Positions 23,890-28,306 are shown, counted from the first letter of the stretch. The stretch: 64,000 nucleotides of DNA from Candidatus Marinacidobacterales bacterium (GCA_965224085.1 CBDCYI010000011.1:1536001-1600000); one strand, 5' to 3'. A program made the numbers and translations. The notes: a model not told the origin generated them from the sequence alone.

Positions 23890-26409
23890 TCACTCCTGTG
23901 TTAACTCGGCGGCACGAGGCACGACGACAACGTTAACGAGACGATTCGGCACGATGACCACTCGTTTGACTTCCATCCCGTTCACAAGCCCTTGGATCTT
24001 TTCGTCCTCGAGAGCGAGCCGCCTGACCTCGTCTTCTTCATGATTGGCGGAAAGCGTCAGCCGGCTGCGCACTTTGCCGTTGACTTGGACGACGAGCGTG
24101 ATGGTCTCCTCGGCGGCGACGTCTCGATCATAGACCGGCCAGGTCGCCGACATGAGGCCTTTTCGGTTTCCGAGGATCTGCCATATCTCTTCCGCCACAT
24201 GGGGCGCAAAGGGGTTCAAGAGAAGAATCACGGTCTCTGTCGCTTCGCGGATCACTTTCCAGCTGTCCGAGCGATGGGGGTGCGGCTCGATCGACTTGTA
24301 GAGCTGGTTCACGAGCTCCATGATCGCCGCAATGGCGGTATTCAAGTGAAGCCGCTCTTCGATGTCGCGCGTCACCCGCATGATGGTCTGGTGCGTTTTG
24401 CGGCGAAGAGCCATCTCGCGCTCGTTCCACTCTTCGTTTCCTTCTATCGGCGACGCCGAGCTCAGCGCGTCTTTCTCGTTCTCGACGAAACGCCACACCC
24501 TTTGGAGAAATCGTGAGGGTCCCTCCAGGCGCTGATCGGTCCAGTTGACTTCTTTTTCCGGAGGCGCCTCGAAGAGCATATAGAGCCTCACCGCGTCGGC
24601 CCCGTATTTGTCGATGAACGTGTTCGGGTCGACGACGTTGCCTTTGTTCTTCGACATCTTCGCGCCGTCTTTGATAACCATGCCTTGTGAGAGTTGGGTC
24701 ACGACCGGCTCGTCGATCTCGACCAGGTCGAGGTCGCGCATCATCTTCGTCCAGAAACGGCAATAAATTAGGTGCAGGATCGCGTGCTCGATGCCTCCGA
24801 TATAGAGATCGATGGGAAACCAATAGGCCACGGCTTCGGGGTGGAACGGCATGTCTTCGTTCTTCGGATCGACATAGCGATAAAAGTACCACGACGAGTC
24901 CACGAAAGTATCCATCGTGTCAGTCTCACGCCGCGCTACACCGCCACATTCGGGACAGCTCGTGTTCACGAAATCTTCGTTCTCGGCGAGGGCCGATCCC
25001 CCCTTGCCCGTGATCTTGACGTCGCGCGGGAGCACAATCGGGAGATCGGCTTCCGGAACCGGCACCACGCCGCAATGACTGCAATAGATCATTGGAATCG
25101 GAGTCCCCCAGTAGCGTTGGCGGGAGATACCCCAATCACGAATTTTGTACCTGATGGCCGCTTTGCCGAAGCCGGTTTTTTCCGCATGCGTCGTCATCGC
25201 CGTGATGGCTTCTTCGGAAGGCAGTCCGGTGAACTCGCCCGAGTCCACGACGGTTCCGTAATCTGAGAAGGCCGTCTCGAAAGCGTCGGTGTCGACCTCG
25301 TCACCTGCACGGGGCTCACGTGGCGCCGATTGGATTACGGGACGGATCATCAGCCCGTACTTCTTCGCAAAAGCGAAATCGCGTTCATCATGTGCTGGCA
25401 CCGCCATGACCGCACCGGTGCCGTAGTCCATTAGCACGTAATCCGCGACCCAGATTGGGACTGCCTCGCCGTTGAACGGATTGACGGCGTCGTGCCCGGT
25501 GGCCACGCCAGTCTTCTCTCGGTCTTCGGCCAAGCGGGTTTCTTTATCCTCGGACTTGGCTTTCTCGACGTAACTCGAGACTTCTGGATTCGTGGCGGCG
25601 AATCGCCCCGCTAGAGGATGCTCGGGTGCCAGCACGACGAAGGTCGCGCCATAGATGGTGTCCACGCGTGTCGTAAAGACCCGGATAGGCTCCGAGCCAT
25701 CCGGAGGCGCGAAGTTGATCTCGGCCCCTTCGGAGCGACCGATCCAGTTTTTCTGGAGTGCGAGCACCTTGCCCGGCCAGCGATCCATGGACTCCATCGC
25801 GGTCAGAAGCTCGTCGGCGTAGACGGTGATCTTCAAGAACCACTGCTCGAGCTCTTTTTGTACGACTTCAGCGTCGCAGCGCCAGCATCGCCCATCGATG
25901 ACCTGCTCGTTCGCGAGAACGGTCTTATCGACTGGACACCAGTTCACCGACGCCATCTTCCGATAGGCCAAGCCCTTCTTCCACATCTGGATGAAGAACC
26001 ACTGATTGAAGCGGTAGTACTGAGGATCACAGGTTGCAAACTCACGCGACCAAGCGTATGAAAAACCCATCCGCTTCAGCTGGGTCGTCATGAGCTCGAT
26101 ATTTCTGAGCGTCCACTCCTCGGGATGTTTCTCGTTTTTGAGAGCCGCGTTCTCCGCGGGGAGCCCGAGCGCGTCCCAACCGATGGGGTGCAGCACATTG
26201 AACCCGCGCATCCGCTTGAACCGCGCGACCGCATCTCCAATCGAATAGTTGCGCACATGCCCCATGTGGATGTTCCCCGAAGGATAGGGGAGCATCTCCA
26301 AAACATAATACTTGGGGCGCTTCGGGTCCTCGCTAACCTCGAAAACCTTACTATCGAGCCACTTTGTCTGCCATTTCCGCTCGATACCCTCGAAATCGTA
26401 AGTCGTCAT
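23890..26409 (-). CDS. leuS: Leucine--tRNA ligase
   Basis: MLPYPSG-HMGH, DWGISRQRYWG, KMSKNK. Confidence 0.98.
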   Translation of the reverse strand: MTTYDFEGIERKWQTKWLDSKVFEVSEDPKRPKYYVLEMLPYPSGNIHMGHVRNYSIGDAVARFKRMRGFNVLHPIGWDALGLPAENAALKNEKHPEEWTLRNIELMTTQLKRMGFSYAWSREFATCDPQYYRFNQWFFIQMWKKGLAYRKMASVNWCPVDKTVLANEQVIDGRCWRCDAEVVQKELEQWFLKITVYADELLTAMESMDRWPGKVLALQKNWIGRSEGAEINFAPPDGSEPIRVFTTRVDTIYGATFVVLAPEHPLAGRFAATNPEVSSYVEKAKSEDKETRLAEDREKTGVATGHDAVNPFNGEAVPIWVADYVLMDYGTGAVMAVPAHDERDFAFAKKYGLMIRPVIQSAPREPRAGDEVDTDAFETAFSDYGTVVDSGEFTGLPSEEAITAMTTHAEKTGFGKAAIRYKIRDWGISRQRYWGTPIPMIYCSHCGVVPVPEADLPIVLPRDVKITGKGGSALAENEDFVNTSCPECGGVARRETDTMDTFVDSSWYFYRYVDPKNEDMPFHPEAVAYWFPIDLYIGGIEHAILHLIYCRFWTKMMRDLDLVEIDEPVVTQLSQGMVIKDGAKMSKNKGNVVDPNTFIDKYGADAVRLYMLFEAPPEKEVNWTDQRLEGPSRFLQRVWRFVENEKDALSSASPIEGNEEWNEREMALRRKTHQTIMRVTRDIEERLHLNTAIAAIMELVNQLYKSIEPHPHRSDSWKVIREATETVILLLNPFAPHVAEEIWQILGNRKGLMSATWPVYDRDVAAEETITLVVQVNGKVRSRLTLSANHEEDEVRRLALEDEKIQGLVNGMEVKRVVIVPNRLVNVVVVPRAAELTQE

Positions 26410-26790
26410 CCTCTCCTCAAGAGCGATCTCAAACCCTGAATGTACAAACGACGCTCATGTTAGCACAGCGTCAACCTGCCTCTCTAAGCCGCGCCAAAAG
26501 CGTGGCGCAATCAGGCGAGCCTGCCCGCCGAAGCGCTGGCGATGGCAGGTGTCCTCCCTGAAGGACTCATTCCGCCGTGAAACGTCTCAGTTGGGAGACA
26601 TCCGAGAACGCCCGCTCGACGCATCCCAACCTTATCTCCCAATAATGCTTACCCTTATACGCACCCAAAAGATTGGCATCCGTCCTGCTAGAACAAGTCG
26701 TAGATCGAGGCTCGGGCCCAGACTTCATCGCTGGCGCATTCTTACCGGGGTCCGGGTCCTCGGTGAAGTCATCAAAGCGGACGGAGGTAC

Positions 26791-27109
26791 TCGTGGGTTC
26801 TAGGACGATCGGCGAACAGCGTCCATCTCTAGCACCATCGAGTGAAAACCAAAGTCTCCTCCGAGCTGAGAACGAGCTTTCAGTGAAGGTCGCGCTCGGA
26901 GTTTCCGACACACTTGCCTGCATCACGCCGAGAACGATTCTCTGGCAAGATTCGGCAGGCGTGAGGAAACGCCGGCCCGACGAGGATGGGGCGATAGAAT
27001 CATCGATGGCATCGGAGTCGGGCTTTCTAGCTTTGGCTTAGGCGGCGGCGAGTGTAGCCAAGGTGTTGGAACGCTTGCCCGATGGCACCGAGAGATCTCT
27101 GGCCCACGA
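26791..27109 (+). ncRNA. Candidate large structured RNA of unknown class
   Basis: Nine mutually compatible nested helices including 5'/3' closure; G-U wobbles favour + strand; terminator immediately downstream. Confidence 0.55.
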
Positions 27110-27113
27110 AGGG

Positions 27114-27145
27114 AAGGGCGGTGGCCTTCGGGCCATCGCCTTTCT
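27114..27145 (+). terminator. Intrinsic terminator with UUCG loop (may also serve the convergent TPR gene)
   Basis: AAGGGCGGTGGCC-TTCG-GGCCATCGCCTTTCT. Confidence 0.75.
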
Positions 27146-27154
27146 ACTTCGTCA

Positions 27155-28306
27155 TCACGCTCCCTCCAAGCTCTCGATCGCATCGCGGATCACTTGAGCC
27201 TGCTGGTCGTCCATTGGAAGCTCTAGCGTTTGCTTGAGTACCGCGACCGCTTCATCCGGCCGCTCGAGCCGCTCGAGAAGCGCTGCAAGGTTCAAGAAAG
27301 CAGGAAGAGAGCTGGGGCTATTGCGGATGGCCGCCCGATAGGCGCTCTCGGCACCCGCATCGTCCTCGAGAGCTTCCGAGACCACCGCGAGCGAGAACGA
27401 CGCGCCTTCGAAATCCGGGTCGCGCTCGAGAAGCTCCAGGAGAGCCCCGCGCGCTCCGCTGTGATCCTCCGAGCTATGAAGAGCAATCGCGAGGTTGAAG
27501 GCCGCACCGTCATGCGGCTCGTCCCGTTCGACGAGCGGACGCAGAAGCGTAATCGCCTCGACAACGCGCCGTTCGGCCAACCTCACGGCCCCCAAATTGA
27601 ATGCGGCGTCCTCGTCCGACGGCCGCTGTTCGTAGGCCTGCTCGAACGCCGTAGCGGCCTCTGCTAGGTCGCCGAGACGGTACGAAAGGCCACCGAGTGC
27701 TAGCAGAATCTCGAAATTGTCGTGCGTGCCATGCGACGCGTGGCGCAAGTTCTCCCGCGCGAGCTCCGCCTCGCCGATTTTCTCGAGCCACTCCGCAAGC
27801 GCCAGGTTGGCTGCCAGGTGATCGCGATCGATCTCGAGAACGGTCCCGAAATGCTTCGCGGCCGCTTCCTCGTCACCCTCCTCCTTGACGATCAAGCCCA
27901 TCACATAGTGCGCATCCACGAGCGCTTCGTCGCGCTCGAGCGCATTTTCGATACGCAGGCGGGCGGTCTCGAAGTTCCCCATCCGGAGGTAGGCGACGGC
28001 GGCCTGAACGAGCACTGTTGGCTCCTTGACGCGCGTCTCTCGCCGCAAACCCATCATACCGAGAGTCGATTCGAGCTCGCGCGCCGCTTCCTTCGGGCGC
28101 TCGACTTTGAGGTAAGCAAGCGCAAGGTGATAGCGATAGTCGGGAACGTCGCGGTCGAGCGCGGCGGCCTGGGAAAGAAGCTCGACCGCCTGGTCGTAAT
28201 CGCCGGCGTTGTAACGTTCGACGCCCTCCGCGTAGAGCTCACCCGCACGATCTTCTTGTACGCCGCTCAGCGCGAGAGCGAACAAGAGGAAGAGGCTCAA
28301 GGACAT
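27155..28306 (-). CDS. Secreted tetratricopeptide repeat protein
   Basis: Signal peptide; repeated YHLALAY, AAFNLG, AFLNLA TPR patterns. Confidence 0.85.
   Translation of the reverse strand: MSLSLFLLFALALSGVQEDRAGELYAEGVERYNAGDYDQAVELLSQAAALDRDVPDYRYHLALAYLKVERPKEAARELESTLGMMGLRRETRVKEPTVLVQAAVAYLRMGNFETARLRIENALERDEALVDAHYVMGLIVKEEGDEEAAAKHFGTVLEIDRDHLAANLALAEWLEKIGEAELARENLRHASHGTHDNFEILLALGGLSYRLGDLAEAATAFEQAYEQRPSDEDAAFNLGAVRLAERRVVEAITLLRPLVERDEPHDGAAFNLAIALHSSEDHSGARGALLELLERDPDFEGASFSLAVVSEALEDDAGAESAYRAAIRNSPSSLPAFLNLAALLERLERPDEAVAVLKQTLELPMDDQQAQVIRDAIESLEGA

Follow-up and report, generated by a model that had tools for sequence, protein, structure and literature searches.

Several small RNAs (sRNAs) of Proteobacteria are transcribed in a sigma-54-dependent manner, among them CrcZ and CrcY under CbrB, Qrr under LuxO, GlmY under GlrR and NrsZ under NtrC. 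Other sRNAs have a dual function and also encode a small protein, as in SgrS/SgrT, RNAIII/hld and SR1/SR1P. Rfam further contains large ornate bacterial RNAs, such as OLE, GOLLD, HEARO, ROOL and raiA. To our knowledge, the regulatory RNAs of Acidobacteriota are almost unknown, especially those of uncultivated sponge-associated lineages. The subject of this work is the 745-nt gap between leuS and a tetratricopeptide-repeat (TPR) gene of a Candidatus Marinacidobacterales bacterium. It occupies positions 26410-27154 of a 64,000-nt stretch of DNA (GCA_965224085.1, CBDCYI010000011.1:1536001-1600000), hereafter the window, and is present only once in the 6.87-Mb genome (G000). A first-pass annotation, made from the sequence alone, had proposed a large nested RNA at this place. 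The gap is instead read here as probably, if by no means certainly, a gene for a new sigma-54-dependent sRNA that is restricted to one family and whose variable linker holds an orphan insert of 192 nt.

The locus resembles the sigma-54-dependent sRNAs in that it appears as a free-standing gene with a -24/-12 promoter, candidate upstream activator sites, its own terminator and a conserved motif in a single-stranded loop. In contrast to CrcZ/CrcY, Qrr, GlmY and NrsZ, it has no match in Rfam 15, it belongs to a different phylum (its relatives are Acidobacteria or Candidatus Marinacidobacterales), and its loop carries GGCGGCGG rather than the motifs we associate with those RNAs. With the dual-function sRNAs, it shares the combination of a structured RNA with a short open reading frame (ORF) and a ribosome-binding site, the ORF spanning 13-82 codons in the genus and 47-220 codons in other genera. 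Unlike in those sRNAs, ORF length and frame vary across genera, two genera have no ORF, and translation is putative here. Its length of several hundred nucleotides and the many helices of its single-sequence fold recall the large ornate RNAs, from which it differs by the missing Rfam match and by conserving only two hairpins and a terminator, not the multi-helix part. The texts accessible to full-text literature searches contain no description of a sigma-54-dependent sRNA in this phylum; on the CbrAB regulatory system, see PMC8871633.

The proposed unit lies on the + strand, antisense to both neighbours. Transcription would start near 26700. It would be driven by a sigma-54 promoter (26674-26688) that depends on an enhancer, and two palindromes upstream would be the likely activator sites. 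A 62-nt hairpin (H1) at the 5' end probably protects this end of the RNA. It would be followed by the variable linker and then by a hairpin of ~90 nt (H2), which would display the invariant G-rich loop GGCGGCGG (27041-27048), before transcription stops at the terminator (27112-27145). The G-rich loop may be the working part of the molecule, either as a seed for C-rich stretches of target mRNAs or as a protein-binding site. The predicted transcript would measure ~450 nt here; that of congeners would have ~260 nt, and the smallest forms only ~130 nt. The insert may represent a tolerated expansion outside the conserved machine, placed in the linker where other genera also carry insertions. With a predicted promoter and intrinsic terminator of its own, both independent of the flanking genes, the unit would qualify as an sRNA gene. 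If this reading holds, the locus defines a new sRNA family with a clear regulatory input, namely an enhancer-binding protein acting at the two palindromes, and with a clear candidate for its working part, the invariant G-rich loop; the two together make the family testable.

Conserved hairpins and terminator

The long hairpin H2 extends from 27002 to 27092 on the + strand, with an apical stem formed by 27035-27038 and 27056-27059 and a loop at 27039-27055, in which GGCGGCGG is invariant across seven genera. Its length stays between 88 and 95 nt in the 17 sequences from five genera that make up alignment A6. These are 17 of the 18 long-form sequences; L041, whose H2 is identical to that of L032, was left out, as were five short forms (four from genus g7 and one from g3). 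In this alignment, 94.3% of the H2 cells are paired, against 31-53% when the partners are slid along each other. Changes on both sides affect nine pairs (2-7 with slid partners) and 34 cells (2-21 with slid partners). The covariation score reaches 0.339, compared with 0.08-0.15 for slid partners, and none of 500 shuffles scored as high. Read on the - strand, only 79.2% of the cells pair, and 68 G-U cells fit the + strand only; as the structure itself came from the + strand, this strand comparison is biased. A short version of 50-54 nt with the same loop takes the place of H2 in g7 and g3; with a U-tract directly behind it, this hairpin is itself the terminator.

H1 occupies 26703-26764 (+ strand). 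Throughout the 15 sequences from five genera in alignment A8, it begins 13-15 nt after the TGC of the -12 element, is 61-65 nt long and folds as a hairpin. Genus g9 has no H1; L041, L034 and G009 were left out of this alignment, as was g5 because of misalignment. Changes on both sides are found at five of the 14 pairs of the consensus fold, and 90.2% of the cells are paired on the + strand versus 72.1% when read on the - strand.

The intrinsic terminator (27112-27154, + strand) consists of a 15-bp stem with a UUCG loop (27112-27145) and a U-rich tail, and was correctly seen in the first-pass annotation. A + strand hairpin with a U-rich tail is found at this place in every genus and, apart from g7 and g3, forms a separate terminator after H2. 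In relatives, U-G and G-U wobble pairs at two positions of its stem fit the + strand in three to four of eight sequences. The consensus fold of eight relatives has an energy of -140.9 kcal/mol on the + strand and -84.5 kcal/mol on the - strand. The preference for the + strand that had been proposed from the single sequence is upheld by this comparative folding. Also supported is the idea of a free-standing unit with its own terminator, antisense to both neighbours; leuS and the TPR gene both lie on the - strand.

Sequence identity between G000 and its congeners amounts to 88-93% in 26700-26808 and 83-90% in 27001-27150. Elsewhere it is 28-49% in 26471-26544 and, for third codon positions in the initial 450 nt of leuS, 80-85%. 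Judged by these values, the region outside the insert is under constraint. The conserved region also contains dispersed indels of 1, 2 and 10 nt, which argue against a long conserved reading frame. The linker between H1 and H2 varies strongly in length, from a few nucleotides in g7 and g3 to ~35 nt in congeners, 192 nt more in G000 and ~550 nt in g6. Two hairpins and the terminator make up the conserved core. At ~130 nt in its smallest forms, this core has the size of an ordinary sRNA and is no large ornate RNA.

One congener (G016, L005:1403-1497, - strand) shows a 6-nt tandem duplication, GGCTTT, in the 5' strand of H2, which yields a 95-nt hairpin with the mini-ORF in frame.

Predicted promoter and upstream palindromes

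Sigma-54 promoters follow the arrangement TGGCAC-N5-TTGC; their activators bind some 80-150 bp upstream, and transcription begins ~12 nt past the -12 element. The gap contains TGGCAT and CTGC separated by five bases at 26674-26688 (+ strand), with the -24 GG at 26675-26676 and the -12 GC at 26687-26688. This is the sole match to the motif on either strand of the window. The pattern TGGCA(C/T), five variable bases and (T/C/G)TGC, recurs at the corresponding position in 21 of the 23 homologous gaps, drawn from seven genera, while the spacer sequence varies. One of these 21 reads TGGTA; of the two misses, one has a spacer shorter by 1 nt and the other is a genome without the whole region. The genome encodes RpoN, as indicated by one Sigma54_DBD match, together with ~20 enhancer-binding proteins; it yields 30 Sigma54_activat matches, 20 of them at no less than 150 bits and none adjoining the locus.

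Upstream of the motif lie two 16-bp palindromes of the 6-4-6 type, a distal one at 26551-26566 (-123 from the promoter motif) and a proximal one at 26584-26599 (-90). Palindromes homologous to the distal one occur in genera g1 and g9. The half-sites of the proximal one, compared by eye, are kept rather than covarying in g1, g9, g6, g3 and g8. The palindromes are likely candidate sites for a sigma-54 activator, and the kept half-sites would fit such binding. RNAalifold drew both as hairpins, yet both are situated upstream of the predicted start. This start most likely lies near 26700, going by the promoter motif, and hence ~90 nt upstream of helix P1, the outermost helix of the nested RNA proposed earlier.

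Combinations of a palindrome and the motif occur at four other places in the genome, compared with ~1.1 expected by our own estimate. Near 942718 (C4; L085:253-636) and near 1201578 (C5; L086:332-856), a similar palindrome stands 80-95 nt upstream of a sigma-54-type motif. The two motifs precede small proteins with signal-peptide-like N-termini; a glycine-zipper match in one of these stays below threshold, with 21.9 bits where 25 are required. C4 and C5 may be members of the same regulon.

The 192-nt insert

The linker of G000 contains a 192-nt insert (26809-27000, + strand) that is absent from all eight distinct same-genus homologues, a count made after removal of duplicates. In all four same-genus genomes, the gap aligns at 80-91% identity, and the matches to its positions 1-399 and 592-745 are directly adjacent. 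The same-genus alignment accordingly shows a clean 192-nt gap opposite the insert. Contigs of relatives in RNA run X12 join 26808 to 27002 without it, and G013, a genome from another genus, lacks it as well. Additional homologues came from searching genome and metagenome collections for a 21-nt pattern taken from the conserved hairpin. Of eight matches on genome contigs, four came from unrelated organisms; three of 13 metagenome matches (L038-L040) had no other similarity.

Distribution and known RNA families

A covariance model of H2 (R1) found exactly one copy per genome in 11 of the 55 genomes of the order, all of them in family f1. Outside this family, a single borderline hit (E 0.009) was obtained among 133 other genomes of the class. 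The model is blind to the short forms, and this tally therefore undercounts the family. The + strand plan is common to the gaps of the family and to a second clade known from metagenomes.

No Rfam 15 family matches the window at gathering thresholds, which covers tmRNA, SRP RNA, riboswitches and the large ornate RNAs as well. The region 26350-27250 gave only matches far below threshold, the best with 25.2 bits against a threshold of 60, and six homologous loci gave no relevant Rfam match. Together with the conserved structure, this bears out the earlier suspicion of an undescribed RNA. The sub-threshold matches to STnc380 and asX1, over the terminator on the - strand, were taken as chance, and so was a g6 locus match to BjrC68. 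As readings of the unit, 6S RNA and RNase P RNA were dropped because both were found above threshold on other contigs of the genome.

Expression and points of doubt

Two RNA libraries from one study contain contigs that correspond to 26766-26991 (226 nt, three differences) and 27012-27162 (151 nt, no difference). The first spans the left junction of the insert. Both lie within the predicted transcript, and nothing else was found in 26300-27300; the lack of cover at 26300-26765 and 27163-27300 does not count as evidence. Run X9 shows no cover over the insert. The position of the contigs inside the predicted transcript is a weak hint of expression.

A number of observations weigh against a sigma-54-dependent sRNA. 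Neither the strand nor the ends of an RNA can be read from contigs, DNA may be present in RNA libraries, and this very stretch served to find the runs. The covariation of H2 draws on 17 related sequences from five genera, and the structure was taken from the same alignment. A motif like that of the promoter would be expected 0.6 times per window by chance, so that position and conservation have to carry the promoter argument, and part of the motif can also be drawn as a small hairpin. A consensus scan of 26300-27300 for sigma-70 promoters and terminators returned no site; it overlooked the terminator at 27112-27154 because the tail has too few T for that rule. The remaining points concern coding capacity. 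The genus keeps a GGAGGT sequence and a GTG codon in the linker region (GTG in nine of nine sequences, GGAGGT weakened in two). The insert measures exactly 64 codons, keeps the frame and has no stop; only 8% of shuffles are likewise without a stop, a proportion to be multiplied by one third for the length. The unit of g6 has an ORF of 220 codons with a strong ribosome-binding site, and its two genomes differ there at 4, 9 and 16 first, second and third codon positions. ORFs that run from the linker through H2 are also present in g8 (74-75 codons) and in three of four g9 sequences (47 codons).

Coding capacity

The first-pass annotation saw no convincing protein gene in the gap. This holds with one caveat, an ORF of 82 codons from GTG 26793 to TAG 27041 (+ strand), which starts 5 nt after the Shine–Dalgarno-like GGAGGT (26786-26791; site and ORF together 26786-27041). 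The unit could then be the mRNA of a small protein of 82 residues, with H1 as a hairpin of the 5' untranslated region, H2 and the terminator as its 3' end, and the insert as a 64-codon expansion of the ORF. Apart from the kept start codon and the open frame of the insert, an identical protein of 82 residues, a gene-caller product, is already on record in the protein collection. It has no homologue there beyond itself and belongs to no Pfam family. The G+C content by codon position is 0.60/0.53/0.57, unlike that of leuS and the TPR gene (0.60-0.75/0.40-0.41/0.73-0.74), and the ORF, 82 codons long here, spans only 13-45 codons in same-genus relatives. By eye, a 2-nt insertion truncates the ORF of one sequence, and loss of the stop codon lengthens that of two others. 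In our reading of the genus alignment, residue-changing differences exceed silent ones. With a length of 13-82 codons within the genus, a third-position G+C of 0.57 and no homologues, 26793-27041 does not have the appearance of a protein gene, and its start codon would be buried inside helix P1.

Other genera also bear on the mRNA reading. The 220-codon ORF of g6 looks real as a gene on sequence grounds. Its differences, biased towards the third position, comprise 13 synonymous and 13 non-synonymous changes, and it has an 83%-identical relative of 221 residues. Only close relatives are among its matches, and it belongs to no Pfam family. The g8 ORFs, with 74 and 75 residues, are distinguished by a 3-nt indel that keeps the frame. 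Against this, g7 and g3 show, by eye, no ORF with a start codon that shares the frame of the conserved loop. The frame over that loop differs between genera, and in g5 the blocks conserved at the DNA level lie in frames other than those of most congeners. The inconsistent frame and the lack of an ORF in two genera imply that the shared constraint acts on the RNA and that coding capacity is a variable extra. On balance, an mRNA as the primary function of the unit is unlikely, if still the most serious of the alternatives.

The g6 ORF (L062:2240-2899, + strand; L063:547-1206, - strand) encodes a hydrophobic N-terminal segment and a glycine-rich C-terminus, the latter running through H2.

It is also conceivable, though doubtful, that the conserved sRNA scaffold of H1, linker and H2 serves as a cradle for new coding sequence. 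The ORFs would then form a series from none in g7 and g3 over 13-45 codons in the genus, 82 in G000, 47 in g9 and 74-75 in g8 to 220 in g6, where there are signs of purifying selection. If so, the locus captures intermediate stages on the way from non-coding RNA to protein gene or in the opposite direction. The ORF content of the linker, varying as it does by genus, offers a small natural series for the interconversion of sRNA and small-protein genes.

The long ORF of g6 at the homologous place also invites the opposite view, in which the gap is the leftover of a decayed ancestral protein gene of the g6 kind and its RNA has no function. What is conserved would be DNA signals in the service of the neighbours, for instance promoter or enhancer sites and a terminator that works in both directions and so also for the TPR gene. 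The palindromes and the promoter motif are indeed signals of this sort, and the terminator hairpin abuts the TPR stop codon. Such a leftover is nevertheless improbable. The pairing of H1 and H2 is kept through changes on both sides, with G-U pairs that fit the + strand only. Moreover, decay would not keep a hairpin of 88-95 nt near-constant in five genera. The neutral stretch beside it has diverged too far to be aligned.

The nested fold and the origin of the insert

The first-pass annotation had drawn the region 26791-27109 as a single nested RNA of ~320 nt, with helices P1 to P6 and a four-way junction, and had suggested a new class of large structured RNA. The helices all exist in the sequence where they were placed. 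P1 pairs 26791-26799 with 27101-27109 (+ strand; nine of nine pairs, two of them G-U) and covers the GTG start codon. P2 (5/5), P3 (6/6), P4 (10/11, with two G-U pairs and one A-C), P5 (8/8) and P6 (9/9, one G-U) are present, as are two of the hairpins (6/6 and 7/7). The third hairpin (27031-27038/27056-27063) forms eight of eight pairs, one of them G-U, by eye, and shares G27063 with P6. Its apical part is the tip of H2. A 6-bp core of P1 (GTGGGT with ACCCAC) is predicted in eight same-genus relatives, with one-sided changes only, and the apical hairpin is predicted in relatives too.

The region also folds better than shuffled sequence. The 355 nt proposed reach -162.4 kcal/mol on the + strand (z-score -4.64), and none of 100 shuffles was as good. 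The same 355 nt reach -152.0 kcal/mol on the - strand (z-score -5.91), again with none of 100 dinucleotide shuffles as good. As both strands fold better than their shuffles, the single-sequence fold cannot choose between them. Much of this signal comes from H2 and the terminator. The insert alone is weakly structured, with a z-score of -1.86 on the + strand (seven of 200 shuffles as good) and -2.43 on the - strand (two of 200), and its local structure is an imperfect hairpin of 94 nt (26888-26981, + strand).

Despite these points in its favour, the nested RNA is very improbable. Of its 319 nt, 192 (60%) belong to the insert and are specific to this lineage. P2, P5 and two of the three hairpins lie in the insert, and so does one strand of each of P3, P4 and P6. 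Looked for in homologues, these helices are missing from the eight same-genus sequences and from the other genera together with the insert that holds them. P2 to P6 and the two hairpins thus have no homologues in which covariation could appear. Enforcing the proposed pairs gives a best energy of -143.5 kcal/mol against a minimum free energy of -162.4 kcal/mol, a difference of ~19 kcal/mol that is approximate, the third hairpin having been mis-registered. The minimum-free-energy fold of the whole transcript keeps H2 in place of the nested fold. In each of P3, P4 and P6, the partner of the insert is the 3' strand of H2; in the 26975/27017 hairpin, it is the 5' strand. On paper, all four compete with H2, which is conserved in five genera and supported by covariation, and would break it. 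By a rough estimate, helices of 9-11 pairs between G+C-rich stretches of 192 nt and 90 nt are expected about two to three times by chance when G-U pairs are allowed. By this estimate of our own, the complementarity in the nested fold is the chance amount for such a size and composition. The locus thereby holds a caution for genome scans: one lineage-specific insert can make an ordinary sRNA resemble a large ornate RNA in a single-sequence fold.

The source of the insert was sought within and beyond the genome. It is single copy in its own genome (blastn with word size 7, nhmmer). No homologue was found in 55 genomes of the order or in the homologous gaps of 12 family genomes (blastn, tblastx), and plasmids and phages gave no match. 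Among 400 genomes of the phylum, two matches of 31-33 nt were all that was found, and these were taken as chance. A derivation from the flanks was tried by local alignment in both orientations and set aside. The best result was a direct match to 27070-27103 with a score of 24 against 15.9 +/- 2.2; two of 300 shuffles scored as high, which is marginal after five tests. The last 27 nt of the insert may be homologous to the stretch just upstream of H2 in G013, into which the BLAST match extended (~22 of 28 identities by eye). That stretch of G013 aligns about equally well to 26755-26778. The clean alignment boundaries and the internal 94-nt imperfect palindrome would suit a small mobile element of the miniature inverted-repeat transposable element type, or a capture from a phage or plasmid. 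This is highly improbable for a sequence in single copy, with neither target-site duplication nor terminal inverted repeats seen at its junctions and with no source among plasmids, phages or the 55 order and 400 phylum genomes searched.

The leuS locus and its neighbours

The leuS gene (23890-26409, - strand) matches Pfam tRNA-synt_1 and the LeuRS editing domain, and the TPR-repeat gene (27155-28306, - strand) adjoins the gap on the far side. Farther from the gap follow lptE and a mutY-like gene. Among the genomes of the family, N-terminal leuS matches were obtained in 17 of 19, and a TPR homologue adjoins leuS in 14 of these 17 loci. The downstream neighbour varies by genus, being mostly the TPR gene on the - strand and mutY on the + strand in g8. 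In the two g8 loci (L065 and L066), the TPR gene is gone, and next after the sRNA terminator comes a mutY-like gene, which lies on the same strand and was identified by eye from its N-terminal translation. With the TPR gene missing there, leuS is the sole constant neighbour of the unit.

All same-genus gaps keep a sequence at 26452-26470 (- strand) that reads, on the leuS strand, TG, one base and TAACAT. About 45 nt separate it from the start of leuS, for which it is a candidate promoter of the extended -10 type. In that case, the long gap would not be a leader of leuS.

Some relatives carry extra A+T-rich or G-rich stretches of ~100-150 nt in this region. In L057 (G010), such a stretch lies downstream of the sRNA terminator, and in L036 and L034 between leuS and the palindromes. 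Words similar to GGGGATAAG form inverted repeats within them, and the stretches may represent repeat elements of small size.

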